From an uncultured Ignavibacteria bacterium (GTDB lineage Bacteria; Zixibacteria; MSB-5A5; UBA10806; 4484-95), in assembly GCA_964614835.1 (NCBI GenBank), contig CAZTNJ010000004.1:1-41950 (forward strand): a stretch of DNA of 41,950 nt, written 5' to 3'. Below, piece by piece: positions 3,082 through 25,603 of this stretch (its first letter is position 1; each line of letters opens with the position of its first letter). The notes under the pieces were generated by a model. It made no database searches and had not been told where the DNA came from. It saw nothing but the letters and a program-made list of their open reading frames with translations. The translations under genes and the position numbers were made by a program.

Positions 3082-3084
3082 CTA

Positions 3085-4410: not shown

Positions 4411-4418
4411 AAAGCCTC

Positions 4419-9437: not shown

Positions 9438-10598
9438 ATGAAAAAGATTTCAATAATGACGGCCATCGGATGGTATCTGACAATAATGTCAGTCGCAACG
9501 GCTTTAGTGGCGCCCCGGGGAACCGAAAGCACCCTGGAGGTGGCAACCTGGAATTTAAAAGAGTTTCCCTACGCGGGGCAATCCACAATCGATACGGCCG
9601 CGATATTGATTCGAGATCTACAACTTGATATAATCGGGCTAAATGAGATAACCGACACTCTTGCGTTCGATAGTCTGTTGGCGCGGTTACCCGGATGGGA
9701 CGGCATATACGCGCCATCGTACGCGGGGGCATATATGAAAGAGGCAATCATATATCGAACCGATCAGATTCAGCTTTCGAATATCGAGACATTATTTTGG
9801 AATTTGACCTATGAATTTCCCAGGCCGCTATTAAAGGCCTATGTACAGGCGCATCTGCCATCAGGATACTTTGATTTCCATTTAATCGTGCTTCATCTAA
9901 AAGCCGGGAGCGAAGACTCGGATGTCAGTCGTCGAATAGCGGCGATGAACCGACTTAAGGATTATCTTGACCAATACGTACCGATAGCATCCGACCACGA
10001 TTGGGTGATAATCGGCGATTATAACGATAATGCCGATGACCCTCTGGCCAGCAATATATTTCGTAATTTCCTCGACGACACCACGCATTACAGGCTGTTG
10101 ACATTGCCGTTGGTGGGCAACCCGTACTGGGCATCATACCCGACATTTAATAGTTTGATAGATCATATCCTGGTAACAACGGATTGCCTGACCGAATACG
10201 GGGCTACGGGTCAGACTATTACACTTCGAATTGGCGATGAGTATCCCAGATACAGCAATATAATTTCGGACCATCGGCCGGTCATGTCGAAATTCGCGCA
10301 GATGCAATCGGGGGTTTTTGAGAACGCCGTTATTCCTTCGGATTTTCAAATTAGCGCTTACCCTAACCCATTTAATGAACAGGCAAATATATCGGTAAAA
10401 ATATCCAAACCGGGAATGATAAATCTGGAGCTTTTCGATTGTCTTGGCCGGAAGCAGCTGAATCTATATCGCGGCCATTTAGAAAACGGTAAATATATAT
10501 TTAATCTGAATGACAAGTCGCTTAGTTCGGGGATATATTTCCTGAGACTGTCGGGAGATGTACAGGTAGATATAATCAAAATGAATTTGATTAAGTGA
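9438..10598 (+). CDS. secreted endonuclease/exonuclease/phosphatase (EEP) family nuclease with T9SS C-terminal sorting domain
   Basis: EEP hallmarks 'LEVATWNLKEF', 'IIGLNEI', 'VIIGDYN' and 'SDHRPV'. The C-terminal ~80 aa, 'AYPNPFNEQANISV...SGIYFLRLSGD...KMNLIK', match the T9SS type-A CTD pattern. An N-terminal signal is present. Confidence 0.8.
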   Translation: MKKISIMTAIGWYLTIMSVATALVAPRGTESTLEVATWNLKEFPYAGQSTIDTAAILIRDLQLDIIGLNEITDTLAFDSLLARLPGWDGIYAPSYAGAYMKEAIIYRTDQIQLSNIETLFWNLTYEFPRPLLKAYVQAHLPSGYFDFHLIVLHLKAGSEDSDVSRRIAAMNRLKDYLDQYVPIASDHDWVIIGDYNDNADDPLASNIFRNFLDDTTHYRLLTLPLVGNPYWASYPTFNSLIDHILVTTDCLTEYGATGQTITLRIGDEYPRYSNIISDHRPVMSKFAQMQSGVFENAVIPSDFQISAYPNPFNEQANISVKISKPGMINLELFDCLGRKQLNLYRGHLENGKYIFNLNDKSLSSGIYFLRLSGDVQVDIIKMNLIK

Positions 10599-10615
10599 TT
10601 TAGAAAATACCACTA

Positions 10616-10658
10616 ATAAAAATCGCCTGATACGATTAGTTATCAGGCGATTTTTTTA
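10616..10658. terminator. bidirectional rho-independent terminator between convergent genes
   Basis: Perfect 12-bp stem AATCGCCTGATA / TATCAGGCGATT with an 8-nt loop. It is flanked by an A-run upstream and a T7 run downstream. Confidence 0.8.
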
Positions 10659-10673
10659 TATATCCAGACAAAA

Positions 10674-11954
10674 TTAATTCCCGATATCGGTGGAGAGTTT
10701 GTATCTGACAATGCGATTGTTGCCGGTATCGGAAATATAAACCGTTTTGCGATTGGCAAAATTATCGTAAGCCACGCCGGTGGGGTTGTTGACCTGTCCG
10801 ATGCTATCGCCTGAAGTCGCGAACGACATCCTGAGCTTGCCGGTCGAATCAAATTTGTGGATATACTTGACGACCGAATCGGTGGTTATGGAATCGAATT
10901 CGGGCACGGCATATGTAAATGTCGAATCGCCTTTCCACCAGGTGGAATCAAGCGTATTACGAGGACCGACAACAAATATACTTCCCGATGAATCGACGGT
11001 CGCCGCCGCCGGGTGGATAAAGTAATTATTGCGATGCAAATCGTTATCGGTACCGGTAAAAGCAGAAGCATACCATCCGAGACGATAATAGGTGTTGTTG
11101 CTGTATGCCAGTAATTGGCATTTGAAATACGATGAATCTTGAGTGTAGAGAAGATAACTGCGGCCACTTCTACCGAAGGCAGTAATGCCGTTGGGATGCG
11201 AGGTCGAACCCAGTCCGGTGCCGTAACTGATTTGGGGATTGGTGCAGGTGTCGTTTCCTACAAGATACTTGGAATCAAGAAGGTAATCGGATAGCGAATC
11301 GAACACGATCGAATCGGGGTTATCTATCGGGTGATTGAAGGCGGTATTCCCCGACCACCAGGTTGTATCGACGAAATTTATCTGATTTTTGAAAACCACT
11401 ACTTTTCCGCTATTAAACACGGATGGGGTAGCGGCGGTTACGTAATACCTTTTAACGTAGCCAACAGCGCAGGCGATATCGGTGAATACATCGGTGCTTT
11501 TGAGCATCAAAGTATCATTGTAGACATTATCGCGCCAGCTATAACAGAGGGCAGCAATGCCATCGCCACCGGGACCGACATTGATTTTATAAATATCTTT
11601 TGAATCGCCGGTAACCACGAGAAGGCGCAATAGCTCATCCTGGGTGAGGCCGATCGGGTGAGGTACTGCGTATGTTCCCTGAATCGTGCCGTGCGCATCC
11701 AAACGAACCACCCGATTATTATCGGTATCGGCGATATAGATATATGTATCGCGGCCCACGATAAGTTTGTGAGGATTGTTAAACGAAAAACCGTTAGCGG
11801 CGTCCCATGGCGGGTCAAGTTGGACATAAGTGGTTTCGCCGATAACGCCTCCCCCCCGATTTTCCTTGGGTCTGTTGATTTTGGTACCGCAAGAAAGTAA
11901 AAATACAATGGCCGCCATCACCGCAACAGTAATCAAAGCTATTTTCTTATTCAT
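10674..11954 (-). CDS. NHL-repeat beta-propeller lipoprotein
   Basis: Signal peptide with lipobox 'FLLSCG'. NHL-like repeats 'ADTDNNRVVRLD' and 'SDTGNNRIVRYKL'. The start lies 2 nt after the upstream stop. Confidence 0.65.
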   Translation of the reverse strand: MNKKIALITVAVMAAIVFLLSCGTKINRPKENRGGGVIGETTYVQLDPPWDAANGFSFNNPHKLIVGRDTYIYIADTDNNRVVRLDAHGTIQGTYAVPHPIGLTQDELLRLLVVTGDSKDIYKINVGPGGDGIAALCYSWRDNVYNDTLMLKSTDVFTDIACAVGYVKRYYVTAATPSVFNSGKVVVFKNQINFVDTTWWSGNTAFNHPIDNPDSIVFDSLSDYLLDSKYLVGNDTCTNPQISYGTGLGSTSHPNGITAFGRSGRSYLLYTQDSSYFKCQLLAYSNNTYYRLGWYASAFTGTDNDLHRNNYFIHPAAATVDSSGSIFVVGPRNTLDSTWWKGDSTFTYAVPEFDSITTDSVVKYIHKFDSTGKLRMSFATSGDSIGQVNNPTGVAYDNFANRKTVYISDTGNNRIVRYKLSTDIGN

Positions 11955-11956
11955 GC

Positions 11957-12961
11957 TTAGAACTCCAGACCAATTGAGAAGACACTGGTTCCACCCAGGT
12001 TTCTCATTGAAGTATAGCCGTAGTCAATCGAGCCTTTGGCCATTTTAATATCTATTTTCACGCCGGCGCCAAGCGAGTAGTTTTCAACATCCGAATTGAG
12101 CAGGTAGCCGCCGCGGAGAAATAACATCTCGTTCATCGAGTATTCCGCGCCGATAGCGATGTTCTCGGCGTTATCGGTCGGATGATTTAATTGGGTAACG
12201 CAGGTCAGTTTATTCTGGCCGGAGGTTAAAGGTTCAAAAGCCGCGGATACTTTAAAAACTGTCGGCGGCGAAAACGACTGATATTCTTTATCGATTATGC
12301 TTCCGGAAACAGTTGTGTATTTATAAGTGCCGCCCGGCTTTACCCGATTTCCGAAGTTGGCCATGTTTATCGCGAAACGAGTGCCATAGAAATCGGTTTG
12401 GTAGAGGGTGCCAAGGTCGACCAAAACCGTTTTCAGGCGAAGGTCCCCGATATTCTCTTGAGCGTACTTTAAGGTAAGGCCACAGGAAAAATATTCGGTC
12501 AGCTTGGTTGAATAAGACACGCCGGCGGCAAAATCGGCATATTCGATTGTTTCGCCGGTGCCTGTCGGATGATACTCGTCGGTTACCATCATGGGATCGG
12601 TCGTTAGAGTAATTAAACTCAAGCCCAGAATGTTGTTTTCATCGATATGGCGGGCGACGCCGATGAAATTGTGTTGAAGCTCGGCAACCCATGAACGATA
12701 GGAAAAGGCGGCGCCGTCCTGTTCATTCCAGGCTAATCCCGCGGGGTTATGATAGAGCGAGTAGATATCGGTGCAGGAGGCCGAATAAGCGCCCGCAAGG
12801 GAGGCGCTTCGCGCCCCAACGCCAATTTTCAGGAAGGTCATTCCGGCCGTACCGGATTTAGTGCCGCCCAGGCTGGGGAAGATATTGAACCCGAATGCCA
12901 TCGTCTGCATTATAAAAAGCGCGGCAACGATTAACGCTAGTATTTTTACTCTGTTTACCAT
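11957..12961 (-). CDS. PorV/PorQ-family outer-membrane beta-barrel protein
   Basis: Signal peptide, then 'FLKIGVGARSASLAGAYSASCTDIYSLYHNPAGLAW', the hallmark N-terminal motif of the PorV/PorQ family. Alternating beta-strand pattern with a C-terminal '...SVFSIGLEF'. The start overlaps the TonB-receptor stop (ATGGTAA). Confidence 0.6.
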   Translation of the reverse strand: MVNRVKILALIVAALFIMQTMAFGFNIFPSLGGTKSGTAGMTFLKIGVGARSASLAGAYSASCTDIYSLYHNPAGLAWNEQDGAAFSYRSWVAELQHNFIGVARHIDENNILGLSLITLTTDPMMVTDEYHPTGTGETIEYADFAAGVSYSTKLTEYFSCGLTLKYAQENIGDLRLKTVLVDLGTLYQTDFYGTRFAINMANFGNRVKPGGTYKYTTVSGSIIDKEYQSFSPPTVFKVSAAFEPLTSGQNKLTCVTQLNHPTDNAENIAIGAEYSMNEMLFLRGGYLLNSDVENYSLGAGVKIDIKMAKGSIDYGYTSMRNLGGTSVFSIGLEF

Positions 12962-15792
12962 GACAACGACACCCCCAACTTAATATTTCTTGGCGCCAGG
13001 TACCGCGATGGATCAAACGGGAATGGATAGGTCGGATTGCGATCAGGATTCAGTGGATCATTCCAGCTGGTCAAGACAGGATCGCCATACTCGTATGCTT
13101 GACCGGTAAGCGGATTAATAATTGAGGAATTTTTCGAATTGGTCAAATTGGTAACTTCCAAGAAAATTGAATATTGGAATTTGCTCAATCTGAAATGTTT
13201 TTTAACGCTCAGATCCATCCATTTCCATGATTTGGCGGTTCTGCTGTATGGGTTATTATCATTTTTTATGTATTCCGGTTCCTGTCCGAGTCGTTCTATC
13301 CTGGTGTATGTTGTGTAACGTTGACCCGATTGCCAGAAAAATCTCAGATAGGCGTTCCATAAGTCCGGCAGCCGAAGTTTCCAGATATTGTAATGTTCGC
13401 CTTTTCCAGAATAGAACGAGAAATCGGCGGAGACTCGAAAAGGTCTATCCCACGACAGATAATTTTCTTTAATCGATTTTTCCTCGAGTTCACCTCTGGC
13501 GACCAGTAGCTCATCCTTGGGCGAGGAGCTTTTACCGGTGGCAATCGAATATGATCCCTGCAACGTCATATTCAAAAGCTTGCTGGCGCGCTTTTTGTAT
13601 TCGATTTCGATACCGCGAGACCGAGCGTAATCGAGGTTAAAATACATGATGAAGTTCTGATTGGAATAGCGGCCGCCCTGGGTAATCGAAAACGCGGCGA
13701 TATAATCGAAGATATCCTTATAGTAGGTCGTAACGGATAGGACATCATTGGTGGTGACCTCGTAGCGTAAACCCAATTCGTAAGAAACGGTCGTTTCGGG
13801 ATTCAGGTTAGGATTGCCAAACAATGGATATGACGAGCTGGTGGAAGTTGAAGACAACTTGGCATAAACGCGCTGGGGTTGCGGCAATTTCGAGAAATGG
13901 CCGTAGGAATAGAAGAGCATGGCATTTTCGGTAACTGGATGGGAAATGCCGATTCGAGGGGAAATGTGGGCTTTGCCGCGATGGCCGAAAATGCTGTAAG
14001 TATCATCGTAATAGGCGGCCCGTAAACCGGGAGAAATTACCTCGGAGCTTTGATTTTTAACAAGGTCGTCGATATAGTCTCCCGGGAACCACCAATCGAG
14101 GCGGAGGCCGGCGTTGACGATAAGACCGAACGAGGATATTTTATCCTGAAGATACATCGACCCGGTATTGGGATAGACCTTATAGATATCGTGATCCAAA
14201 CCCAACCCGCCCTTGCCGATACCGGGGTTGTTGATATCCACCATCTGGATTTCCTGGAAGTTTGATTCAAAGCCGCCCTTAATTAAGTGGCGGGTTCCGA
14301 AGCTGAGGTTCCCATCCCATTTTAAGGTGTATTGCTCGAAATAGTAATCGCGCCATTGGTCGCCGACGCCATAATCATAGAAACCGTCGCCGGTAGTAAT
14401 ATCGTAATGGTCAAGATATCTAACCGGTTGATGGGATATTGAATCGAAGTAGGTTACATATACCGGTATATAATTTATGGGCAAGATATCGATCGGTTGT
14501 TCGTGGCTGTCACTCCAGCTTTTATTTTTAACAGATGATCGCTGCTGAGTGAAGAATCGCGAGAGTTTCAATTCGTAGAAAAATTTGGGGCTGGTGGTGT
14601 GGGTCAGCGAGAGCGTTTGGTTGTTGGAAACGCGAGTGCGAGTATTGTAATTGGCCAGAATGTTCTGGAATCGATATGGGTAGCTGCCCGCATCAAGGTT
14701 GGGATTTTCAAAATCATTTGATTGAAAACCCTGATCGATATTCAGCGAACCGGAGAAAGAACCGACTAATTTGAGGGTCGAGCTGAATCGATGAGTTAAT
14801 TTAAATAAACCGGAGTACTCGTTGGCCTCGCGGGGCGCGTATTTTGAACCGCCAAACAATGATGAGTACAGGTCGTGCGTATGGGGTAAATAGGTATCCG
14901 AAAGGCTGGCGTATCCGGAGGAGAAAAAGCTCATGTTTTTCACAAACGGTACCGGCCCCGAAAGCTGAACTTCGCCAATATCGGAGTTAAAATTAGAGGA
15001 GCTGATTTTTCCCTGGTCATCGACAGTGGATTTCTTGAATAGTCCGAAATTATCCGTTTTATAGGACAAGCGGCCTGAATACTTCTGCACTGAGCCTTCT
15101 TTGGTTTTAACCTGCACCACGCCCGACATGGCCTGGCCATATTCGGCATTGAAACCACCGGTTAGCACCTCGAATTCTTCGATGGCGCCGGCGGTGATAT
15201 TGAGGCCGGCAGTACCGCCGGAATAGGGATCCTGGATGGAGATACCATCGATAAGGTAGGCATTTTCGTAAGCGCGGCCGCCGCGAATATGGATTTCATC
15301 GCCGGCCACAACAACGCCCGATTGATTTTTCAGCAGATCAGTAGCGTTTTCGACAACGAGATTTTTAATCTGGTCGGAGCCAATTGCTGAGCGACTCTCT
15401 GTAGCGCCGATATCAAGCATCGGTTTTTCGCCAATGACCACGATATCTTTGCCAAGAGTCAAAACCGACGGTTCCAATTTGAAATCCATGTTGATAGAAT
15501 CCAGTTCTTCAAAATGAACCGCGGTTCTTTGAATCATCTTGTAACCTATCAGGGACACCTCTATCGTATAGGTGCCGCCTTTAATATTAACGACTTTATA
15601 ATAGCCGTCAATATTGGTTGAGGCGCCGAAATAGGTACCTTTAATCATGATAGTGGCGCCCGGTAAAGCTTCACCGGTTTTTGAATCGGTGATTACGCCT
15701 GTCATAACAGCGGCCATAGCGCTATTTGCCAACAGGGCGACTATCATCATCGTTAAGGTTATCAGGACAATTGAATTATTTCTGTTATTCAT
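12955..15792 (-). CDS. TonB-dependent receptor with N-terminal carboxypeptidase-regulatory-like domain
   Basis: CarboxypepD_reg-like 'GVITDSKTGEALPGATIMIKGT...DGYYKV'. Plug domain 'LLKNQSGVVV...IHIRGGRAYENAYLIDGISIQDP' and 'FNAEYGQAMSGVVQVKTKEG'. Long beta-barrel ending in 'LGVSLSW'. Start set at ATG 15792 (MNNRNNS..., signal peptide), overlapping the upstream stop in ATGAATAA. Confidence 0.88.
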   Translation of the reverse strand: MNNRNNSIVLITLTMMIVALLANSAMAAVMTGVITDSKTGEALPGATIMIKGTYFGASTNIDGYYKVVNIKGGTYTIEVSLIGYKMIQRTAVHFEELDSINMDFKLEPSVLTLGKDIVVIGEKPMLDIGATESRSAIGSDQIKNLVVENATDLLKNQSGVVVAGDEIHIRGGRAYENAYLIDGISIQDPYSGGTAGLNITAGAIEEFEVLTGGFNAEYGQAMSGVVQVKTKEGSVQKYSGRLSYKTDNFGLFKKSTVDDQGKISSSNFNSDIGEVQLSGPVPFVKNMSFFSSGYASLSDTYLPHTHDLYSSLFGGSKYAPREANEYSGLFKLTHRFSSTLKLVGSFSGSLNIDQGFQSNDFENPNLDAGSYPYRFQNILANYNTRTRVSNNQTLSLTHTTSPKFFYELKLSRFFTQQRSSVKNKSWSDSHEQPIDILPINYIPVYVTYFDSISHQPVRYLDHYDITTGDGFYDYGVGDQWRDYYFEQYTLKWDGNLSFGTRHLIKGGFESNFQEIQMVDINNPGIGKGGLGLDHDIYKVYPNTGSMYLQDKISSFGLIVNAGLRLDWWFPGDYIDDLVKNQSSEVISPGLRAAYYDDTYSIFGHRGKAHISPRIGISHPVTENAMLFYSYGHFSKLPQPQRVYAKLSSTSTSSSYPLFGNPNLNPETTVSYELGLRYEVTTNDVLSVTTYYKDIFDYIAAFSITQGGRYSNQNFIMYFNLDYARSRGIEIEYKKRASKLLNMTLQGSYSIATGKSSSPKDELLVARGELEEKSIKENYLSWDRPFRVSADFSFYSGKGEHYNIWKLRLPDLWNAYLRFFWQSGQRYTTYTRIERLGQEPEYIKNDNNPYSRTAKSWKWMDLSVKKHFRLSKFQYSIFLEVTNLTNSKNSSIINPLTGQAYEYGDPVLTSWNDPLNPDRNPTYPFPFDPSRYLAPRNIKLGVSLSW

Positions 15793-17215: not shown

Positions 17216-17244
17216 GATCCCCTCGAATCGCCCCCCTAAAACAT

Positions 17245-19251
17245 TTATTTCAGCATCAACATCTGTTTAGTCTCAGAAAAATCACCAGCTTTTAATTGAT
17301 AGAAATAGATACCGCTCGAAACGGCTTGGCCTTGAGAGTCCACGCCATCCCAAATAATAGAGGCCATCCCGACGGGCAGATTAAGCTTCGTGGTTTCGAA
17401 CACCTTTCTGCCTAATAAATCAAATATCGCCAAAGTCGCGTTACCTGGACGGTTCAAATAGAAATTTATCATGGTTGTGGGATTGAACGGGTTGGGATAA
17501 TTCTGATAGAGAGTCGTCCTGGTCGGCAAAGCCTGTTGCTCATCGCGTATAGACACATCATTGGAGAAATCGAGATAGCGACGGGGCTGGAGTTGATAGC
17601 CTGAACGATATGGCGGTGTGTAATCATACTGGCCGATAACGCCAACTATTTTTTGCGGTAGAACTGGCCGAATCTGACCTGGTATATTAGTGCTTCTATC
17701 AATACGAAGGGCGGCGCTGTCTCCCGGTATATCAACGATAGTCATAGTCGCTGATGAACCCAGGGCCGGCCAGGAATTGGGTATATCCACCAGGTCAACA
17801 TGTCGAACATATGCCAGGCGCCCTTCATACGATTCGCCGATACTATCGCCGAGTTGGGCGCAAGTAACGCTAAGCGTATCAAAAGCCCTATTCGTACCCA
17901 GGATACTGATACGGCTTACCCTCGAGCAAATTACTTGAGCCCGTCCATTATAATGGGCGACGGTACCGATAGCTTTGATAGAATCGCCGATATTCACATT
18001 AACCGTAGCGCTTCCCAAATAACAACCAATTCCGGCGGTGGCGTCCTGCATGAAGAAATCGGTGGTAGTGGTCGTAGTAAAGTTTGCGCTGGTGGCGACA
18101 CCATATATAATAACGGCGGTGTCGATTAAATCGGGAAGGAAATCGCCGTTGGCATCAATTCTCGCCTCGGCAATAGATACGGTTCGGGGCGATTGGACTT
18201 TATAGCGCTTGAAACTGATAGGAGCTTGGTCAGGATATTTGCTGCTATCGCCGCGGTTGTCGATGGCTTTGATGTAATAATCGACCATGTAGCCGGCCGG
18301 CAACGGCGGGAAAGTAAACGAGTAGTAGTTGTTGCTTCCCGCAGTCATTACCTGACTTTGCCAGTTTCCAAGATTAAATCTATATTTTAGCCAGACGGTT
18401 TGAACCAGACTGTCATCGATAACATTAGCCGAAATTCTGGTGGAATCGGCATCACTTGCGGATACATAGATTGGGTTAGTCGGCGAGTTATAAACATTGC
18501 TTATAATCGGGGCGCCAGTTGGCAGGGCCATATCTCTCATATAACGAGGCTGCAGGTTGTAACATCCAAAGCGATGGTAAATAACTCCCTGTACATAGGC
18601 AAAGTGAGTACCGATTGGCGGCAAAAAACCGCTGATGGAATCGGAAGCTTCCCTGACCATCATGCGATGACCTGAAGAATCGGAGCATATCCAGGTTGAA
18701 GTGCTACCGTATACGATGGTGGTTTCGACAGTAACATCATTGATTCGGCAGTAGACACCTTCAAATTGCTCGCCTAGAGAATCCGCTCCACCGGTCGAAT
18801 CAATCCAGGCTGCCGAGGGAATAACCACTGGGGTTGGTTCAGGATTACCAAAAGAGACGAAAGAAAAACTATTGCGGATAATACGCAATTCTGTCATGGT
18901 GCAGAAACGCCCCGCGGTATAATTATATTCCTGGACTAAGGCATCGAAAGTTATGGAATCGCCCGGAATCAAAGTCGGATAGCCAGTGGCGCTTGAATCG
19001 TAAGCCATAATTCCCGACCAGGGACCGCCGGAGGAGGTTTCGAGATAAAATGACACTCCTGTACCGGCATAATATAAACCTGTCCCGGCCACGACAACGC
19101 CGCCCGTATGGACATATTGTCCGGCATACTCCGAACTATCCTGTCCACTGGGAACTTCCTGGATCAGGTTGATAGAGACTGTATCATAAGCTAAAGCTGT
19201 CGCCGCCAGATACATCGCTCCAATCACGATTAAAATCGCTGCTTTATTCAT
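17245..19251 (-). CDS. secreted T9SS cargo protein with two YhcR/ExeM-like OB-fold modules
   Basis: AAGGAG lies 6 nt upstream of the ATG and a signal peptide is present. OB-like modules are 'GQYVHTGGVVVAG...FYLETSSG...GDSITFDALVQEYN' and 'VIIYGVATSAN...FFMQDATAGIGCYL...IGDSIKAIGTVAHYNGRAQV'. T9SS CTD 'YPNPFNPTTMINF...SGIYFYQLKAGD...MLMLK'. Confidence 0.7.
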   Translation of the reverse strand: MNKAAILIVIGAMYLAATALAYDTVSINLIQEVPSGQDSSEYAGQYVHTGGVVVAGTGLYYAGTGVSFYLETSSGGPWSGIMAYDSSATGYPTLIPGDSITFDALVQEYNYTAGRFCTMTELRIIRNSFSFVSFGNPEPTPVVIPSAAWIDSTGGADSLGEQFEGVYCRINDVTVETTIVYGSTSTWICSDSSGHRMMVREASDSISGFLPPIGTHFAYVQGVIYHRFGCYNLQPRYMRDMALPTGAPIISNVYNSPTNPIYVSASDADSTRISANVIDDSLVQTVWLKYRFNLGNWQSQVMTAGSNNYYSFTFPPLPAGYMVDYYIKAIDNRGDSSKYPDQAPISFKRYKVQSPRTVSIAEARIDANGDFLPDLIDTAVIIYGVATSANFTTTTTTDFFMQDATAGIGCYLGSATVNVNIGDSIKAIGTVAHYNGRAQVICSRVSRISILGTNRAFDTLSVTCAQLGDSIGESYEGRLAYVRHVDLVDIPNSWPALGSSATMTIVDIPGDSAALRIDRSTNIPGQIRPVLPQKIVGVIGQYDYTPPYRSGYQLQPRRYLDFSNDVSIRDEQQALPTRTTLYQNYPNPFNPTTMINFYLNRPGNATLAIFDLLGRKVFETTKLNLPVGMASIIWDGVDSQGQAVSSGIYFYQLKAGDFSETKQMLMLK

Positions 19252-19263
19252 CGCGTACTCCTT

Positions 19264-21360
19264 TTATTTAATTACTAAAAATTTCCCTTTTTGGATATCG
19301 CCGGTTACCTCATTTTTCACGGTAAATAGATAGAGGCCGGTAGCGATTGCCTGGTCGGCTTTAGAAACAACATCCCAGCCATGCACGCCGCCCGACATAA
19401 CCATATCACCGGAGGCGTAGTTGCTAAACCAGGCTATATCGGCGCCATTCCCGGAGGCGGCGTTGTGATCGATATTATCGACAACCTCGCCGGCCAGGGT
19501 ATATATCGTGATACGGCATTTTTCCGGAAGGTTATAGAAATACATTTTGCGCAAACGTTCCTTGGCTCCATCGGTACCGCGACCATCCCAGATGGCGTAA
19601 GCTCGGTAAGGATTGGGAAAAACCCCAACCTTGGCACTAGTTTGACTGGGGGTTCCCGGAAACACTCTTTGATAATTAATGAGGGCGCTTGATTCGAGGC
19701 TTTCCAGATTATTTAAAGGATCGCCGGTATCAAATGCGCTTATAGCAAACAGGTATTGCCAGCCGTTGAGCAAATTATCGCTGGTGAATTTATAATACAT
19801 CGTATCGCCATCAATAATAACCGGCTCCGGCAAAGTAACATACCCCAGGCCTGTGTTGTAACCGGTAGCGTGATATCCGGTATCAGCAGCTATATCAAAT
19901 TCGCCTATTAATTCCAATAGGTTTTTAAGGCCGCGATTTTGGTTATCCTGGGTAATTCGGGCTCGGTAAATGCGGTAGCCCTCGAAATCCTGACGGCCAA
20001 GTACCGGGTCGATAAAATTTTCGGCGAATTTATCCCAGTAGATTTCGACTTTGTTATCGGAGGCGACTAATTTCATCCCGGGTGCAGGCGGCGGCACGGG
20101 AAGCAAATAGCGGTCAAGAATACCGTTGTGGTTGGTATCTTCGTTTGGCTGGAGAATTCCATCGCCGTTCTTATCTTCGCCATCATAAGCGGTTTTGGCC
20201 CAATTGGCGAATTTCATCAGGTTGGTTTTGGATAATGGCGTGTCCTCGTTGGGCGAGTCGGCGCCATATTTTTCACCGCAGACCATAGCATAAACGACCT
20301 GCATGGTCGATTCGGGCATTAGAGTACGATATGGACCGGACGAGATAAGCATTGTCCAGTTAGAGGTGTTACGGATGCCGGGAATGGTATTTCGCCAGTC
20401 CGGATAGTCATTAAAGCCGCCGGAGAGTTTGGAATAACGTTCGATATCATTTTGAGGCGCGGAGAATATCGGATCGCTGCTATTATTCCACCGCCAAATA
20501 TTATACTTAACATAACCCGAGTCAGTGTATAGGAAACGACCCCCGCCGGTATCTCCAAACGCCGGGGTGCTTCCCAAAAATCTAATAGCGCTGTAGCTTT
20601 CGGCAAAGCCGTTGTCACCGTCGTAATCGAATTTATATCCCATAGCGCAACTATCTATAAAGTTACAGGCGTCATCATACCAGTTCCAGCTTCGGTTGGG
20701 GCCGCTGGTTGGGGTCAGGTCGGTATTGCCGATACTTGGTTCGAACCAGAAGCCGGTATAGATATTGGAAATCGGCGAATTACTCTTATTGGTTATATCG
20801 AAACGAATAATAACGAAAGCATCCGCGAATGGCATACTCCAGGCGTAGGTTTCCTGGTGGACCGCGATTTTGAACGGGTCATGGTTCAGGATTGAGTCGC
20901 CCACTCCCGGAACATGAGTGTTCGAATCGGAGTAATCGCAGATGAAATCCTGATGGCTAATCGCATAAGGATCATAGTAACGCGAATTAATCAGCGACGA
21001 TTTTTCGACTATGACATCGGTGGTCAATTCGCTGTTGGTGAATTCATATCCCTGGGTCGTACCGGAAGTGCCGGGATTTTTATCCATAGCGCCGGTGGTG
21101 ACTTTGCGCTGGCCGTTCTGTTCGCCGCCGAACCAGAGGCCGCCGAACCAGAGATGTTCGATATGCGAGCCGATAGGATATTCGCAAGATGGTTGCCCAT
21201 CTATAAAAAAGCCGGTGCCAAAAACACCGTAGTTCGTGACTGTCAACGAGATATTACCTATATTCGTATAGTGGCTGTTATCGTCGACAGCTGATGCCGG
21301 GTTCTGCCAGATGAGAACCGCCAGCAATACGCCAATGCTGAAACCAATTATTTTTTTAAT
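19264..21360 (-). CDS. secreted T9SS cargo protein of unknown function (FN3-like and Ca-binding-like segments); probable ATT start
   Basis: C-terminal 'FPNPYRAY...GLYLFTVKNEVTGDIQKGKFLVIK'. Internal 'GEDKNGDGILQPNEDTNHNGILD' and 'VEIYWD...FEGYRIYR'. The ORF track starts at TTG 21327. An in-frame ATT at 21360, 8 nt after GGAGG, gives a canonical signal peptide MKKIIGFSIGVLLAVLIWQNPASA. Confidence 0.65.
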   Translation of the reverse strand: MKKIIGFSIGVLLAVLIWQNPASAVDDNSHYTNIGNISLTVTNYGVFGTGFFIDGQPSCEYPIGSHIEHLWFGGLWFGGEQNGQRKVTTGAMDKNPGTSGTTQGYEFTNSELTTDVIVEKSSLINSRYYDPYAISHQDFICDYSDSNTHVPGVGDSILNHDPFKIAVHQETYAWSMPFADAFVIIRFDITNKSNSPISNIYTGFWFEPSIGNTDLTPTSGPNRSWNWYDDACNFIDSCAMGYKFDYDGDNGFAESYSAIRFLGSTPAFGDTGGGRFLYTDSGYVKYNIWRWNNSSDPIFSAPQNDIERYSKLSGGFNDYPDWRNTIPGIRNTSNWTMLISSGPYRTLMPESTMQVVYAMVCGEKYGADSPNEDTPLSKTNLMKFANWAKTAYDGEDKNGDGILQPNEDTNHNGILDRYLLPVPPPAPGMKLVASDNKVEIYWDKFAENFIDPVLGRQDFEGYRIYRARITQDNQNRGLKNLLELIGEFDIAADTGYHATGYNTGLGYVTLPEPVIIDGDTMYYKFTSDNLLNGWQYLFAISAFDTGDPLNNLESLESSALINYQRVFPGTPSQTSAKVGVFPNPYRAYAIWDGRGTDGAKERLRKMYFYNLPEKCRITIYTLAGEVVDNIDHNAASGNGADIAWFSNYASGDMVMSGGVHGWDVVSKADQAIATGLYLFTVKNEVTGDIQKGKFLVIK

Positions 21361-21483
21361 ACCCTTACCCTCCCGATCATTTTTATTGCGGCCATATAAA
21401 TAATCGAAATTAACATAATACGCAAGGATTTTCGCCGTTTATCGCTCTTTCTTACTCATTATCCATTAGTATTTTTAATAAAT

Positions 21484-21514
21484 GACGCCGGTCAGCCATC
21501 CGGCCAACCGGCGT
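21484..21514 (-). terminator. candidate terminator hairpin after the 1261-aa gene
   Basis: 8-bp GC-rich stem ACGCCGGT / ACCGGCGT with a 15-nt loop, followed on the minus strand by CATTTATTAAAAATA (imperfect U-tract). Confidence 0.45.
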
Positions 21515-21555
21515 ACACTCAAACGATAGACGTTATGTCTACCTAACAGTCAATT

Positions 21556-24500
21556 TTAGTGGTCCAAAGCCGAATTGTTACGAATTTCGCTTTGATCGAT
21601 CGGACGAAGTATCGGTGGCAGAGTGGTCGGGAACCAGTGGCAGCAGCTCAATTGAGCGTTGCCCTTGAAATAGGCGACCAATCTGGTGATATCGGAGCCT
21701 CTGAATTCGCAGTTGCCATTGCAATCGCCGGCGACATATAGATAAGTGCCGGTTGAATCCATGAAGCAGCTATCTCTGGGCGGTGTGCCTATGCCCTTGA
21801 AGTAGCGGACACCGTAAGTAACGTCGCCGCCAAGGCGCTGGCCATCGCCGCTGATATCGCCGATTAAGTAGACGCAATCACCGCCGCCACCACAATCGAG
21901 GCCGGTATTGAAATCGGCATCAGAACGGGGTTCTAATCTCCAGTAATTGAAATGCCATCTGAAAATACCGGTGATACCTATGATGGTATCGCCGACCACA
22001 GGATCAGTATAATGATGGTATCTGACTTTGGTAATCAAGCTGATAGTATCGCCGGAAGTCAGGGATACAAGCAGTTGGCAACTATCTGCTGGAGCTGGCA
22101 ATGAAGGATCGAGAACCACTAAGGAATCGCACAACTTGCTGAACACGTCTTCATATGTTTCGTTACCGGCAATAGGCTGTCTGAAATAGAAATCAGCCGT
22201 ATTTGAGCTTTTACGAGTAGGTTGCGGAGCCGGTCCGTGATTAACCAATACGGCATTGCGATAGGTCGAGAAATAACTCAATTCGGTTTCGCTATAGTAT
22301 TCGATCACCTGTCCGGTTACGATTACGGTATCGCCAATTACTGGCATCCAGCCTACCGCGGTACGAGTCCACGGGGCAAGTACGCAACCATGATTGGACG
22401 CGTCATTGATAATCAAGTTGTTATACAATGTGGAAGTTGTATCGGCTACTATTACGCCTTTAATTGTAACAATATCGCCAAGTATAGCCGATGTATCGCC
22501 GCCAGCGTTGGGGGCCTGAACGGTCGAAATTGGCGTGAATCCCTGCCAGATTCTGGTGCTATCCGGGGTAATCATGGTAACGCCAATTGAATCGGTAACG
22601 CCAACAACAATCAAGGTATCGCCGAGACCGTTGGTTTGAGTGGCCGTAGTTAAAATCACTCTTCTGCGGGTCGTATCAAGAACCGCGGCGGTAATGCTCA
22701 AGCCACGCGTAGTTGTATAATGTGATGGCGTTTCGGCGGAAGCCTGTTGCATGGCGCGGTCGAACTGCACTGCCAGATGATTCTGGTCAATCGGGAAGGC
22801 ATAGGTCATATTGGCTTGCGGCACGACCAGAGGAACGTAGTCAGAGCCTTTACGCGGCAAAAGCACATAGCTTCTTAAGTTAGGCCAAGTATTGCGCCCT
22901 TCAAACTTGATAACGCCGACAAGCGTAAGATAGCGCGCGCCTGTTGATGGCGGTATCGCCGGCTGGTCGGTACCATTTATCCACATGTAATTCTGCATGT
23001 AGATCGAATCGGTGGTGGAATTGTCTTTAATCCAATATGCGTTTGCCCCTAAAGCGCTCAACACAGTTACGCTGTCAATTTTTACGAGAACATTTTCGTA
23101 AGGTTCGGCGCCAAAATTACATCCGCCAACCAAATCAACGATACGGACATCGGTGGTTTCGGGAAGCGGATTGTTGGTGCTGCGAATAGTAAAGTCAATT
23201 AAGCTGTCGATTTCGGTCCAGCCCCAGTATTCTTTTACCCGGCCATTGAGCTCGACTTTATCGCCGATTGCGCCGTTAAAAGTATTTCCGCCGGCATCGA
23301 CATAGTCATATACCGTCATGCCAGTCCATCCGGCATAACCAGCGGAAGTTCTGGGATCCTGGAGATAGAAGTACTTAGTAGCACCTTGTTGCACCGCGGT
23401 TACGATACCGCAGATATTGACAATCTGGCCTTCGTATGGCGAGATGAAACAGGAAGAATCGGAGCCTTGATTTAAAGTATATTCAATATTGTAAATCGTA
23501 TCGGCCCCACAGAAAGAAGTATCGGGCACAACGAAGAAAGCCGTGGATGTTTGAGTGCGCTGGGCGATGTTGTCGGTGGCGACAACGTAATAGCTGACCG
23601 AATCGCCAATCGCATAAGAACCCATATGGAATTTATAAACATTGCCAGTGGCAATACTATCATGGGTAACGGCTGTAAAAGCGCCAGCGTTCAGCGCATA
23701 ATATAAGCTATCGGATACGATGGTACCGGAAGAAGAGGTTATTGTCGCGTGAAGCGTAACCACCTGGCCCGGGACCATGGGCGAAGGATAAACCAGTACA
23801 TTGGTGATACTTGGCGGCGCATAGCCCAAAACGACATCGGCGGAAACTCTCGGGCCGAGGACATATTGGCCTCTGGTGTAGTTAACTACGCCTTTAATGG
23901 AGGAGTAAGTTTGGCCTACGGTGATGGTGGGCATGTCGTAACCGTTGTTGTAAATGGTGGTCCAGATAGCGCAGGAATCGCCGGAACCATCATTACCCCA
24001 ATACGCATATAACGGGGAGCCCTGATATGATGTAACGGTGAAATTATGCAGTTCGGCATACATGCCCTCATACTGCTCTCTTACGGGGCTACAGCCAGTC
24101 GATCCAAGAGTGGCTGAAGTAATCTGCAAAGGAGGCGGTAGCGGCCTGCCGGCGGCATGTTTAACCATACCGGTAGGCGACATCATTTCAGTCAATCCAT
24201 AATATTCGGCAACGGAAACGTTGACGGTGATGCTATCGCCGATTTGAACCGTATCGCCTGTTGTGCCGCCGTAAACATAAACGCCGGACCAGACGCTGTC
24301 GGCATCCTGAAGCCAGAACCAGCCGTGACGGCCACTTTGTTGATAAACAGCCGTAACTTTGCCTGTCAGCTTAACAAGATTCCCGAGCAACGGCGATGGA
24401 TAACAGGTGTCCGGGGCGGTTCCGCCGGGGTTGGTGTTGTTAAATTGGACCTGGGCTATCGGAATAACCGGAGCATTGGTATCGACACAGGTGAAACCAT

Positions 24501-25341
24501 AAGTGCTGGAGGCGGTACGAGCGGAACTGTCATCTCTAGCGATAACATAATATTCGACCGAATCGTCAATTGAATATGAACCGAGAGTGTACCAATAGTA
24601 ACTGCCGACTACGCTATCGTGATAGACCGGAGCAAACGCACCTGGTACAATACGGCGATACAAACTATCTGTAACGATATTGTAATCGTCGGTTATGGTA
24701 GCCCTTGATGTAACAGTAGCGTTTTCAGGGACCAACGGGTAGGGATAGCGCAATACGGAAGAAATGACCGGGGGTTGATTGGTGGTCGGGACCGCTTCCC
24801 AAAGTACAAAATCATCAACATAAACTACTGCATCGCCATCCCAGCGGGCAGAGCCTTCGGAGTTACCACGGATTTCCATATTGAGCCAATAGGAACCAGC
24901 CGGGCAGGTGGCTTCCCAAATTAAAGCTTCCCAACCAGCGACATTACTGGAATACGGAATAGATGGAGTTGGGTTAATTCCGTTGGGGGCAAACCAAAAC
25001 CAGGGACGAGCCCTACCGCTTGTATCGCTATCATTAACCCATAAGGTGCAGGTATAAACCGCGCCAGGGGTAACGGCAATGGTATCGGAATAAAGTTTTG
25101 TCGTAGTAGTCGTATTCCAATAATACCTGGCGCTGTAGTTGCCAGTCCGAACAGTAGTACTGTCGGCCGTAACGGTTGGGTATGCCGTTCTATAGCCCCA
25201 ATGATCTGGCGGGCCATTGACGCCATTGATCGACCAATTCTCGAAACCGCCGTTCAGCAGTTTTTGAGTATCGGCCATGGCCGGCATGGCTAACAGGCAG
25301 ATTGCCAATCCGACCAGAGAAACTAACAACAATTTTTTCAT
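21556..25341 (-). CDS. 1261-aa secreted multidomain surface protein: CBM/jelly-roll-like N-domain, tandem Ig + OB-fold (YhcR/ExeM-like) units, SbsA-like Ig domain, C-terminal dockerin-like module
   Basis: Start set at ATG 25341 (MKKLLLVSL..., GGGAG upstream) rather than TTG 25353. N-domain 'LLNGGFENW...VYVDDFVLWE'. OB units such as 'IAQVQ...SPLLGNLVKLTGKVTAVYQQ...FWLQDA...SGVYVY...IGDSITVNVSVAEYYGLTEM'. C-terminal 'GDISGDGQRLGGDVTYGVRYFKG...GDCNGNCEFRGSDITRLVAYFKG'. Confidence 0.8.
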   Translation of the reverse strand: MKKLLLVSLVGLAICLLAMPAMADTQKLLNGGFENWSINGVNGPPDHWGYRTAYPTVTADSTTVRTGNYSARYYWNTTTTTKLYSDTIAVTPGAVYTCTLWVNDSDTSGRARPWFWFAPNGINPTPSIPYSSNVAGWEALIWEATCPAGSYWLNMEIRGNSEGSARWDGDAVVYVDDFVLWEAVPTTNQPPVISSVLRYPYPLVPENATVTSRATITDDYNIVTDSLYRRIVPGAFAPVYHDSVVGSYYWYTLGSYSIDDSVEYYVIARDDSSARTASSTYGFTCVDTNAPVIPIAQVQFNNTNPGGTAPDTCYPSPLLGNLVKLTGKVTAVYQQSGRHGWFWLQDADSVWSGVYVYGGTTGDTVQIGDSITVNVSVAEYYGLTEMMSPTGMVKHAAGRPLPPPLQITSATLGSTGCSPVREQYEGMYAELHNFTVTSYQGSPLYAYWGNDGSGDSCAIWTTIYNNGYDMPTITVGQTYSSIKGVVNYTRGQYVLGPRVSADVVLGYAPPSITNVLVYPSPMVPGQVVTLHATITSSSGTIVSDSLYYALNAGAFTAVTHDSIATGNVYKFHMGSYAIGDSVSYYVVATDNIAQRTQTSTAFFVVPDTSFCGADTIYNIEYTLNQGSDSSCFISPYEGQIVNICGIVTAVQQGATKYFYLQDPRTSAGYAGWTGMTVYDYVDAGGNTFNGAIGDKVELNGRVKEYWGWTEIDSLIDFTIRSTNNPLPETTDVRIVDLVGGCNFGAEPYENVLVKIDSVTVLSALGANAYWIKDNSTTDSIYMQNYMWINGTDQPAIPPSTGARYLTLVGVIKFEGRNTWPNLRSYVLLPRKGSDYVPLVVPQANMTYAFPIDQNHLAVQFDRAMQQASAETPSHYTTTRGLSITAAVLDTTRRRVILTTATQTNGLGDTLIVVGVTDSIGVTMITPDSTRIWQGFTPISTVQAPNAGGDTSAILGDIVTIKGVIVADTTSTLYNNLIINDASNHGCVLAPWTRTAVGWMPVIGDTVIVTGQVIEYYSETELSYFSTYRNAVLVNHGPAPQPTRKSSNTADFYFRQPIAGNETYEDVFSKLCDSLVVLDPSLPAPADSCQLLVSLTSGDTISLITKVRYHHYTDPVVGDTIIGITGIFRWHFNYWRLEPRSDADFNTGLDCGGGGDCVYLIGDISGDGQRLGGDVTYGVRYFKGIGTPPRDSCFMDSTGTYLYVAGDCNGNCEFRGSDITRLVAYFKGNAQLSCCHWFPTTLPPILRPIDQSEIRNNSALDH

Positions 25342-25603
25342 GATCTCCCTCAACTCGGTTGAGATGTTAAAAATTTCACGTTCATGGGTATGATGTTGTT
25401 TCGTATTATCACACTCCCTTCACGATTTCCCATTAAATTTCATTTACGAGTCTATTAGTAAGCTTTTGGGGACAAGAAGGACTTCAAGCCGAAAGTCAGA
25501 CTCATCATGGCAACCGTGTTACACTTATTATGCGCCCCTTTTCGGCAATTGTCCTGATTCCCGTTTAGTTTAACTTACAAGATTCGATTGCCGAGTCCCG
25601 GCT

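Follow-up and report, generated by a model that had tools for sequence, protein, structure and literature searches.

In Bacteroides thetaiotaomicron, DNA depletion depends on the DNA-utilisation locus ddbABCDEF (BT3558-3563; Sharan et al. 2025, bioRxiv 10.1101/2025.03.18.642099; Bechon et al. 2022, PMC8851478). One of its products, DdbD, contains a DUF5689 domain and is the predicted partner of the DdbC (BT3560) transporter (bioRxiv 10.1101/2025.03.18.642099). In Riemerella anatipestifer, a DUF5689 protein (RA0C_RS04920) and a CarboxypepD_reg barrel (RA0C_RS04915) are both essential for natural transformation (PMC8459023). In the nuclease ExeM, the YhcR-like OB region is needed for full activity (PMC6085458).

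Here we analyse a stretch of DNA of 41,950 nt (the window, by which we mean the whole stretch), concentrating on eight ORFs at 9438-25341/25353. The original prediction for this locus was one of surface capture, cleavage by a secreted nuclease and import by a TonB-dependent receptor. For this general model, Bacteroides ddbABCDEF and Riemerella RA0C_RS04915/04920, which the prediction did not cite, now provide experimental precedent.

A six-gene operon common to FCB phyla

The core operon lies on the minus strand and encodes, in order, an orphan T9SS protein (19264-21360), a 668-aa OB-fold T9SS protein (17245-19251), an FN3 lipoprotein (15785-17215), a TonB-dependent receptor (12955-15792), a PorV-family barrel (11957-12961) and, as its final gene, an NHL lipoprotein (10674-11954). 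The intergenic gaps are 12, 29 and 2 nt, and two junctions overlap: the FN3 lipoprotein stop with the receptor start (ATGAATAA; ATG at 15792), and the receptor stop with the barrel start (ATGGTAA). The FN3 lipoprotein is, judging from the sequence of its junction, translationally coupled to the receptor. Upstream, on the same strand, is the gene of a 1265-aa secreted protein (21556-25341/25353; 1261 aa in the original prediction). An intrinsic terminator 3' of this gene (21485-21514, minus strand; 13-bp stem with nine GC pairs) separates it from the six-gene operon. Downstream, an EEP protein is encoded convergently on the plus strand (9438-10598), and a bidirectional intrinsic terminator (10618-10655; 15-bp stem between an A-run and a T-run) is common to the EEP and NHL genes. 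The eight genes, the gaps, both overlaps and both terminators, with the separate termination of the upstream gene and the sharing of the downstream hairpin, were thus all found again where the original prediction had placed them.

Eighty related loci were kept, from 80 different assemblies, with one locus per assembly in the sample, and the gene order recurs in them more than chance would allow. They belong to Zixibacteria, KSB1, Ignavibacteria, Marinimicrobia, Calditrichota and one Bacteroidota MAG, and the order and strand of the core are retained in essentially all loci with enough flank. Core synteny in the related loci is complete for the receptor (64/64) and the PorV-like barrel (60/60), and extends to the OB protein (54/55), the orphan (42/44) and the NHL lipoprotein (44/54); the predicted association of the OB protein with the receptor therefore holds in relatives. 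Relatives of the FN3 lipoprotein occur in 486 stretches from a search of 185,579 species genomes. The window thus contains a Zixibacterial copy of a six-gene outer-membrane operon common to phyla of the FCB superphylum, and apparently not previously described. This operon is the real unit of the locus, a cross-phylum conservation that the original prediction had missed.

The core contains no gene for a periplasmic nuclease, phosphatase or inner-membrane transporter. Profile searches gave zero matches to any SusD family among the window genes, as had been claimed, and the related loci showed neither SusD nor any glycoside hydrolase or polysaccharide lyase within the core or consistently adjoining it.

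Molecular features of the encoded proteins

Behind a type I signal peptide, the 668-aa protein consists of OB/DUF5689 module 1 (residues ~22-242), an Ig-like domain (~245-352), OB/DUF5689 module 2 (~353-565) and a type A CTD (585-668; TIGR04183 41.2 bits, cut-off 23). The 1265-aa protein is made up of a CBM-like jelly-roll, three alternating Ig and OB pairs (Ig, OB, Ig, OB, Ig, OB) and a dockerin-like C-terminus; over residues 355-839 it runs colinear with residues 78-562 of the 668-aa protein. The five OB modules, three in the larger protein and two in the smaller as first counted, align over ~215 aa each with shared motifs (pairwise phmmer E 3e-21 to 1e-3).

The ExeM_NucH profile NF033681 matches the 1265-aa protein over profile positions 2-116 (E 3.2e-26; NF033680, E 1e-8) and the 668-aa protein over positions 30-105 (E 1.6e-4). 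Within the family of the 668-aa protein (n=56), ExeM_NucH is matched by 54 members, the nucleic-acid OB fold PF01336 by 33 and DUF5689 by 21 (best PF18942 match E 6.6e-8), and a few match the ComEC-type DUF4131 and YrrC OB folds. The 668-aa protein of the window aligns with almost all of PF18942 (profile positions 3-213/217, E 0.009), its 16.3 bits falling short of the gathering score of 28.6. The reference for profile comparison was the DUF5689 region found in 1079-aa proteins of Bacteroidota, which in locus L092 scores 74 bits against PF18942. Module 2 matches this bona fide region with an hhalign probability of 99.9% (E 1.8e-31, 33% identity) and module 1 with 95.9% (E 5e-9). These comparisons indicate that the OB modules are homologous both to the N-terminal OB region of ExeM/NucH and to DUF5689, and the YhcR-type OB fold recognised in the original prediction is borne out by the NF033681 matches of the 1265-aa protein and of the relatives of the 668-aa protein. 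No OB module scored as a carbohydrate-binding class in the profile searches, the unrelated class against which the prediction was to be checked. CBM_56 gives weak matches to the Ig domain in 24/56 members of the 668-aa family.

Foldseek matches of an AF2 model of the 668-aa protein (pLDDT 84.5) include the Ig domain of PPAD and the HIN-dsDNA complex of p204, the latter at a low TM-score (0.16/0.22) with the multi-domain model as query. PorU and PorZ are also returned, owing to the CTD and Ig parts that they share with the model. The pI of the OB modules is acidic (4.4-5.1 in the window; family median 4.3), unlike that of basic HIN-type DNA binders.

The 1265-aa protein has no T9SS CTD detectable by profile search. 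The CBM-like jelly-roll proposed for its N-terminus finds a weak counterpart in CBM_4_9 (E 3.4e-4), but this match lies under the curated cut-off. The C-terminus (1158-1242) matches two proteins of locus L008 with Dockerin_1, one of those Dockerin_1 calls being weak. Orthologues are confined to Zixibacteria-type loci (L007, L008, L011, L015 and L017); the protein is a clade-specific secreted paralogue, accessory in Zixibacteria.

The orphan T9SS protein (687/698 aa) consists of a large beta-supersandwich, an FN3 domain and a divergent type A CTD. It has no sequence match in Pfam, NCBIfam or PDB; its family comprises more than 1268 relatives, all unnamed, and it is 45-50% identical across phyla. 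In Foldseek, the AF2 model (pLDDT 78) finds only weak counterparts in the sandwich domains at the N-termini of GH94, GH116 and GH161, the main domain resembling the beta-supersandwich of glycoside phosphorylases/hydrolases. The CTD is missed by HMM libraries and emerges on comparison with the CTD profile of the 668-aa family (hhalign 96.8%, E 3e-10), so that the operon encodes two T9SS-CTD cargo proteins, as expected. No ATG lies in frame in the 687-aa ORF. The start placed at 21360 by the original prediction is an ATT codon, 7 nt after GGGAGGG; it restores the signal peptide and is kept in a 90%-identical relative (L011), and ATT is probably the start codon.

The receptor contains an N-terminal CarbopepD_reg_2 domain (PF13715, 64.8 bits), and the scores for the Plug (PF07715, 50.8 bits, cut-off 23.9) and the barrel (PF00593, 93.4 bits, cut-off 27) are those of a TonB-dependent receptor with Plug and 22-strand barrel. 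It is not of the SusC/RagA type (TIGR04056 75 bits, N-terminal part only, versus a cut-off of 368). Its nearest solved relative is CirA (E 1.6e-7), and no close solved relative has a known substrate, a kinship that the original prediction had marked for checking. The FN3 lipoprotein (lipobox IAGC) has two FN3/PKD-like Ig domains, followed by a C-terminal ~250 aa without a recognised fold; its family profile matches titin FN3 and ColH PKD domains, and it belongs to no Pfam family apart from weak Y_Y_Y and fn3 matches. The barrel scores 187.8 bits against NF033709 (cut-off 90), the PorV/PorQ family, and fails all equivalog cut-offs (PorV 75.6 versus 250, PorQ 62.1 versus 220, PorV2 53.9 versus 325); it is thus a separate branch of this family. 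It matches F. johnsoniae PorV (6h3i_F, E 3.6e-7). The NHL lipoprotein is a beta-propeller (PF01436, E 1.4e-5) with the lipobox LLSC. Profile scores and lipoboxes therefore agree with the identities first given to these four proteins.

The EEP protein matches PF03372 over the full profile (46.4 bits, 1-225/225) and has a T9SS CTD (TIGR04183 37.5 bits, cut-off 23), as predicted; the motifs WNL, LNE, LHLKAG, GDYND and SDHRPV can be seen by eye. It is a secreted EEP-family phosphodiesterase, probably a nuclease. EEP orthologues adjoin the core in L007, L014 and L015, and weaker EEP-T9SS genes do so in L009, L010, L064 and L082. An adjacent EEP gene occurs in only ~8 of ~55 related loci with enough flank. 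The nuclease is an accessory of the Zixibacteria clade and not a conserved member of the locus, a point on which the original prediction is weakened. Nor did the proposal of a 'split' ExeM/NucH enzyme survive in its literal form, because the window EEP did not score as the ExeM/NucH catalytic domain in profile searches and its relatives match that part only weakly (E ~8e-5), as well as the MnuA nuclease.

In different phyla, OB modules fused to enzymes lie next to the core: EEP with OB in L015, DUF5689 with a NucT-like PLD domain and T9SS in L010, and DUF5689 with Metallophos and T9SS in L051. In L092, LTD is fused to two DUF5689 domains and T9SS. The best match of the L010 PLD domain is NucT, a Helicobacter nuclease linked to transformation. 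RNase_T adjoins the core in L009, and some loci are flanked by GDPD and other phosphoesterases that are not nucleases. Nucleases adjoin a minority of loci, no flanking family is universal and some loci are without any such enzyme.

Possible functions of the operon

The surface protein carries the DNA-associated DUF5689 OB domain of the Bacteroides and Riemerella DNA-uptake systems, which argues for nucleic-acid uptake as the most probable role. We therefore consider capture and import of extracellular nucleic acid to be the best reading of the core operon, to which we give a little less than an even chance. Besides module homology, it is favoured by the OB fusions to nucleases and phosphoesterases, the EEP-T9SS and RNase_T neighbours, the synteny of the core, the p204 complex among the Foldseek matches and the single locus per assembly. 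Under this reading, the T9SS would export the orphan protein and the two-module 668-aa protein, both of which have CTDs. The PorV-family barrel may then hold both cargo proteins at the surface via these CTDs, by analogy with PorU-PorV and PorZ-PorQ, and the OB modules, to go by their homology and gene fusions, would bind extracellular nucleic acid. Accessory T9SS phosphodiesterases would cut it, a task that may fall here to the EEP protein aided by the triple-OB 1265-aa protein. Finally, the fragments would enter via the TonB-dependent receptor, with the FN3 and NHL lipoproteins as presumed surface partners.

Several observations point the other way: the OB modules are acidic, nucleases are not universal at the loci, and the orphan has a fold like that of carbohydrate enzymes. 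To these can be added the lack of periplasmic nuclease, phosphatase and inner-membrane transporter genes in the operon, the CBM_4_9-like start of the 1265-aa protein, the CBM_56 matches, the sub-cut-off PF18942 score and the low p204 TM-score.

Some of these same features would suit import of a glycan or another non-nucleic-acid polymer, with the OB modules and the beta-supersandwich acting as carbohydrate binders and the nucleases being unrelated neighbours. The GH94, GH116 and GH161 sandwiches matched by the orphan, the weak CBM matches and the acidic modules are consistent with it, as are the GDPD and other non-nuclease phosphoesterases at some loci and the lack of a nuclease at most. However, every CBM match is under its curated cut-off, all the OB families matched by the modules are nucleic-acid OB families, and fusions join this module to three separate nuclease/phosphoesterase superfamilies; glycoside hydrolases, polysaccharide lyases and SusD are missing from the core and its regular surroundings. 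Moreover, glycan loci tend to diverge and to be present in several copies, while the core operon was seen once in each of the 80 assemblies. A single locus per assembly and the conservation of the orphan across phyla fit a chemically invariant substrate better than a glycan, and we regard the glycan reading as unlikely.

Alternatively, the proteins could form a T9SS surface complex in which import is not the main role and the receptor-like barrel is a scaffold, serving eDNA-matrix anchoring or adhesion, surface-layer attachment or biofilm structuring. The very strong conservation of the core proteins, one operon per assembly across phyla, would suit such a complex, and two T9SS cargo proteins with a PorV/PorQ-family barrel recall the PorU-PorV and PorZ-PorQ pairs; a homologous Bacteroides region influences biofilm formation via eDNA. 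The Foldseek returns of PorU and PorZ also fit, but come through the shared CTD and Ig parts. Against this, the complete Plug and barrel of the receptor, at normal scores, suggest active transport, tight lipoprotein-receptor translational coupling is typical of transporter-partner pairs, and the barrel is neither a PorV nor a PorQ equivalog. We consider this explanation improbable.

Least likely of all is that the same machinery moves long DNA over the outer membrane for natural transformation instead of for food: the essential DUF5689 protein and CarboxypepD_reg barrel of Riemerella (PMC8459023), the NucT-like PLD domain fused to DUF5689 and a single conserved copy per genome, as would suit a housekeeping competence apparatus, speak for it, but ComEC, ComEA, DprA and HhH genes were not seen in the window or the top flanking families, the endonucleases adjoining the operon argue for degradation, and there is no mechanistic proof, even for Riemerella, that dsDNA can pass a plugged 22-strand barrel. 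Within nucleic-acid uptake, we favour nutrient scavenging (P, N and nucleobases) over transformation, two roles that are inseparable on these data.

More speculatively, and with doubt outweighing confidence, the operon might represent an FCB-wide hybrid of T9SS and TonB machinery that takes up nucleic acid through the outer membrane, in which a dedicated PorV-family barrel tethers secreted DUF5689 cargo next to the transporter. It might then be a broader, possibly ancestral form of the two-gene Ddb/Riemerella core, with the orphan as a new component of DNA capture or processing. eDNA is a major pool of P, N and genetic information in sediments and soils, where the carrier phyla (Zixibacteria, KSB1, Marinimicrobia, Ignavibacteria and Calditrichota) are abundant and mostly uncultured. 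If nucleic-acid uptake is indeed the role, the principle of DNA uptake by DUF5689 and a TonB transporter would hold for a whole superphylum and not just for gut Bacteroides and a single bird pathogen, and type IX secretion would feed a TonB-dependent importer, possibly via a PorV-like tether. It would also give a testable role to an orphan family of more than 1,200 unnamed proteins, and a marker for DNA scavenging or competence in environmental metagenomes.

Comparison with described systems

As in the PorU-PorV and PorZ-PorQ pairs of P. gingivalis, a PorV/PorQ-family barrel is encoded with CTD proteins that it could retain at the surface. However, the window cargo is unrelated to PorU and PorZ beyond the CTD, and the barrel, which scores under both equivalog cut-offs, is set in a transporter operon. 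The locus shares with SusC/SusD PULs, or 'utilisomes', the combination of surface binders with secreted hydrolases and with a TonB-dependent transporter that has a CarboxypepD_reg domain at its N-terminus. It differs in having no SusD and no CAZymes, in a receptor that is not SusC/RagA (TIGR04056) and in anchoring through the T9SS and not through lipidation alone.

The first half of each window module is homologous to the YhcR-like OB region of ExeM/NucH and YhcR (NF033681, NF033680), and a lamin-tail domain also occurs in some relatives of the window OB proteins. Unlike ExeM/NucH, the window OB proteins have no EEP catalytic domain (whole-protein scores of 92.3 and 20.7 bits versus the NF033681 cut-off of 300), and the ExeM/NucH catalytic subtype is not detectable in the separate EEP enzyme.

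The locus resembles that of Riemerella in that an FCB-group bacterium encodes a surface DUF5689 protein together with a CarboxypepD_reg barrel of the outer membrane. The Riemerella system differs in consisting of two genes for which genetics has proven a role in transformation; DUF5017 / choice-of-anchor J is also present in its DUF5689 protein, and reports on the pair mention no T9SS CTD, PorV-like barrel or additional lipoproteins.

PUL-like logic without SusD is seen in both Ddb and the window, and for the receptor itself the architecture of CarboxypepD_reg, Plug and barrel is the sole common feature shown. A plasmid search returned no DdbD-like locus. The Ddb locus encodes its nucleases and its DUF5689 protein as lipoproteins, with the gene of the DUF5689 protein directly adjoining that of the transporter. 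By contrast, the two-module DUF5689-type protein and the nuclease of the window are T9SS cargo, and the gene of an unrelated FN3 lipoprotein sits between the 668-aa and receptor genes. The operon goes beyond the Ddb arrangement in its PorV-family barrel, its NHL lipoprotein and its conserved orphan, with nucleases as optional neighbours.

Architecture and conservation of the six-gene operon

All eight genes named in the original prediction are found in the region. Six of them lie on the minus strand and encode, in order, an orphan protein of 687 aa (19264–21360), a 668-aa OB-fold protein (17245–19251), a 476-aa lipoprotein (15785–17215), a TonB-dependent receptor (12955–15792), a PorV-like barrel (11957–12961) and an NHL lipoprotein (10674–11954). 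They are flanked by genes for an EEP-family protein (9438–10598, plus strand) and a 1265-aa protein (21556–25341, minus strand). The junctions within the six are as predicted, with gaps of 12, 29 and 2 nt and two overlaps, ATGAATAA (lipoprotein stop and receptor start) and ATGGTAA (receptor stop and PorV-like start). The start codon of the receptor is ATG 15792, giving a protein of 945 aa; the longer ORF at 12955–16080 (minus strand, 1041 aa) is an artefact of a frame that is open for 288 nt upstream of 15792 and overlaps the lipoprotein gene. The first operon gene has no in-frame ATG. Its sole in-frame canonical start, TTG at 21327 (minus strand), would truncate the signal peptide. An ATT codon at 21360 (minus strand) lies 7 nt 3' of the Shine–Dalgarno sequence GGGAGGG, and the signal peptide IKKIIGFSIGVLLAVLIWQNPASA is recovered from it. 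The same ATT and its context occur in the 90%-identical relative at locus L011 in another assembly, and from its sequence context the gene appears to start at ATT 21360.

A strong hairpin at 21514–21485 (minus strand) terminates the 1265-aa gene, and the NHL and EEP genes, which converge, are separated by a 15-bp hairpin (10618–10655) flanked by runs of A and T. Non-coding stretches of 545 nt (25354–25898) and 195 nt (21361–21555) precede the 1265-aa gene and the operon, respectively. No Rfam family matched anywhere in the window, these stretches included, so that the length of the upstream regions is not accounted for by a riboswitch or leader RNA. Promoter-like sequences in the scanned region are about as numerous as in shuffled sequence, not more so.

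A search of 185,579 species genomes for the 476-aa lipoprotein family yielded 486 stretches. Of these 486 loci the best 80, from 80 different assemblies, were examined by searching the window proteins against their six-frame ORFs. They are labelled as Zixibacteria, KSB1, Ignavibacteria, Neomarinimicrobiota, Calditrichota, Fidelibacterota, Zhuqueibacterota and others, and the operon is also present in a Bacteroidota MAG (L092). Wherever the flank is long enough, the order and strand of the six genes are kept: the receptor is present in 64/64 loci, the PorV-like barrel in 60/60, the OB protein in 54/55, the orphan protein in 42/44 and the NHL lipoprotein in 44/54, so that the proposed pairing of receptor and OB protein holds in relatives. 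Literature searches, including non-Bacteroidota phyla, found no description of this operon, and the conserved six-gene operon is itself the more interesting finding.

Variants of the arrangement were observed in two groups. In Marinimicrobia-type loci (L049, L059, L062, L063 and L084) the NHL gene was undetected and a gene of ~450 aa stands instead downstream of the PorV-like gene; we suspect that these are the loci with GDPD beside the operon and purB/purD upstream, the census giving counts only. In KSB1-type loci (L034, L035, L037, L042, L046 and L048) a second CarboxypepD_reg TonB-dependent receptor of ~912 aa, only distantly related to the core receptor, directly follows the NHL gene on the same strand.

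Domain content and the OB-fold modules

Domains were assigned by Pfam and NCBIfam profile searches, which bore out most of the predicted identities. The 386-aa EEP protein has a full-length EEP domain and a type A T9SS CTD, and the 426-aa protein combines a lipobox with NHL repeats. With 188 bits (cut-off 90), the 334-aa barrel is a PorV/PorQ family member, and it falls under the equivalog cut-offs for PorV, PorQ and PorV2. The receptor comprises CarboxypepD_reg, Plug and barrel domains; on the SusC/RagA profile it reaches 75 bits, whereas 368 are required. As anticipated, no gene matched SusD. A classical PUL is ruled out by the absence of SusD, a receptor score that is not SusC-type and the lack of CAZymes. 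The 476-aa lipoprotein contains two FN3/PKD-like domains, and its C-terminal half has no assigned family.

The predicted module counts, three in the 1265-aa protein and two in the 668-aa protein, were recovered as five aligning units of ~215 aa, those of the 668-aa protein at residues 22–242 and 353–565. They share the motifs G..V...G.V.A, GD.I, V.EY...TE, E.YEG and Y.L.PR...D, and pairs of modules match each other in phmmer with E values from 3e-21 to 1e-3. Residues 355–839 of the 1265-aa protein are colinear with residues 78–562 of the 668-aa protein. The proposed YhcR/ExeM/NucH-type OB fold is upheld by a match of the 1265-aa protein to positions 2–116 of NF033681, its N-terminal OB part (E 3e-26). 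Among 56 relatives of the 668-aa protein drawn from related loci, 54 match NF033681, 33 match the nucleic-acid OB fold PF01336 and 21 match DUF5689; a few match ComEC-type DUF4131, YrrC OB or lamin-tail domains. The window's own 668-aa protein scores only 16 bits on the DUF5689 Pfam profile. Aligned by hhalign with a Bacteroidota DUF5689 region (74 bits on the Pfam model), module 2 gives a probability of 99.9% (E 2e-31, 33% identity) and module 1 gives 95.9%.

The AF2 model of the 668-aa protein (pLDDT 84.5) comprises, besides the CTD, two beta-rich modules and an Ig domain resembling that of Porphyromonas gingivalis PPAD. Foldseek with the full model returned mostly Ig and CTD matches and, at low TM-score, a p204 HIN–dsDNA complex; in the sequence search of solved structures, the PPAD Ig domain was the protein's sole match. 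By all of these profile, hhalign and structure results, the modules are therefore not a carbohydrate-binding class.

Of the two T9SS cargo proteins predicted, the 668-aa protein is confirmed by a profile match to a type A CTD. That of the orphan protein was missed by Pfam and NCBIfam and found by hhalign: its last 125 residues align, with two insertions, with the CTD profile of the 668-aa family (96.8%, E 3e-10), and the orphan protein is therefore also T9SS cargo. It is the best conserved of the core (45–50% identity across phyla) and has more than 1268 relatives, none of them named. The protein had no match in Pfam, NCBIfam or PDB sequences, nor did its family profile match solved-structure sequences. 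Its AF2 model (pLDDT 78) shows a large beta-supersandwich, an FN3 domain and the CTD, weakly resembling the N-terminal sandwiches of GH94, GH116 and GH161 and YidC P1. Since all Foldseek matches are generic beta-supersandwich or FN3 matches (TMq ≤0.28), they assign no function.

Accessory and neighbouring genes

Neither the EEP gene nor the 1265-aa gene belongs to the conserved core, although the original prediction counted the nuclease in the locus. Clear EEP orthologues adjoin the operon in L007, L014 and L015, with weaker EEP–T9SS genes in L009, L010, L064 and L082. An RNase_T-like exonuclease adjoins it in L009. The 1265-aa type and its APS-kinase-like neighbour are confined to Zixibacteria-type loci. 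No family is universal in a Pfam census of flanking genes, and the clusters of purD, purB, Ogt and GDPD appear restricted to particular clades. A literal 'split ExeM/NucH' was rejected because the window's EEP protein does not score on the catalytic part of ExeM/NucH.

In several loci an enzyme domain is fused to the module. The window's EEP subtype is joined to OB modules in L015; a DUF5689 module is joined to a PLD domain with the nuclease NucT as best match in L010, and another to a metallophosphoesterase in L051. That three unrelated phosphodiesterase superfamilies are fused to the module beside the operon in different phyla suggests a phosphodiester polymer, and the named best matches of the fused enzymes point to nucleic acid.

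Downstream of the operon in L092 (8001–11240), one protein has a lamin-tail domain followed by two DUF5689 modules, together with a plastocyanin-like copper-binding domain and a T9SS CTD; it is unusual for a redox domain to share a protein with a DNA-type OB module.

Neither the EEP protein nor the 1265-aa protein matched solved-structure sequences, and the domain search found no T9SS CTD in the latter. Its last ~85 residues (about 1158–1242; 21556–21810, minus strand) form a dockerin-like duplicated Ca-loop segment, matching two L008 proteins with recorded Dockerin_1, one weakly. The L008 Dockerin_1 genes adjoin a papain-like peptidase gene. Upstream of the 1265-aa gene, 25899–26639 (minus strand) encodes a P-loop kinase of the APS-kinase/AAA_33 type with a ~70-aa N-terminal extension, found in the same neighbourhood in Zixibacteria-type L007, L008, L011, L015 and L017. 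Positions 581–8400 and 31819–37056 are housekeeping: a ZnuABC-type transporter, a TldD/PmbA pair, an HlyD-like protein with a weak M50 match, GNAT, EamA, a methyltransferase, GT2, YchF, a ComB-like phosphatase, GcvT and an M6 peptidase.

Proposed function and comparison with known DNA-uptake systems

The original prediction is borne out in what it observed and in part in what it inferred. We propose, tentatively and at somewhat less than even likelihood, that the operon captures and imports nucleic acid for scavenging. The T9SS would secrete the cargo proteins and the PorV-like barrel would retain them at the surface, where the OB modules may bind nucleic acid; accessory nucleases would cut it, and import would be TonB-driven. 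This whole scheme is drawn from homology, gene fusions and synteny; domain identities and synteny alone are its observed part. Against it count the acidity of the modules (pI 4.4–5.1; family median 4.3), nucleases that are optional neighbours and the lack of operon-encoded periplasmic or inner-membrane downstream steps. The orphan fold, typical of carbohydrate-active enzymes, and sub-threshold CBM_4_9 and CBM_56 matches also count against it. A substrate other than nucleic acid, such as a glycan, is nevertheless unlikely: each of the 80 assemblies has one conserved locus, which fits an invariant substrate, for example DNA, better than glycans. That pattern would also fit a mainly structural or adhesive role linked to the T9SS, which we regard as improbable.

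Two characterized systems resemble the operon in pairing a DUF5689 protein with a CarboxypepD_reg TonB-type barrel, the receptors being compared by domain make-up. In Bacteroides thetaiotaomicron, ddbABCDEF is needed to deplete exogenous DNA and to produce nucleobases, and AlphaFold predicts that DdbD, which carries DUF5689, partners the TonB transporter DdbC at the surface (10.1101/2025.03.18.642099; PMC8851478). In Riemerella anatipestifer, the DUF5689 protein RA0C_RS04920 and the CarboxypepD_reg barrel RA0C_RS04915 are essential for natural transformation (PMC8459023). A transformation variant of nucleic-acid uptake is quite improbable for the present operon, and the rest of the window (581–8400, 31819–37056) contains neither competence genes nor T9SS core genes. 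Full activity of ExeM requires its YhcR-like region (PMC6085458). A plasmid tblastn search for DdbC/DdbD-like loci found only a Bernardetia lamin-tail protein outside any receptor context, and the neighbourhoods of P0287 and P0305 were uninformative in this respect. Compared with the Ddb and Riemerella systems, the window operon anchors its cargo through the T9SS rather than by lipidation, has two modules in its OB protein and couples a different lipoprotein to the receptor; its PorV-family barrel, NHL lipoprotein and orphan protein are further additions.
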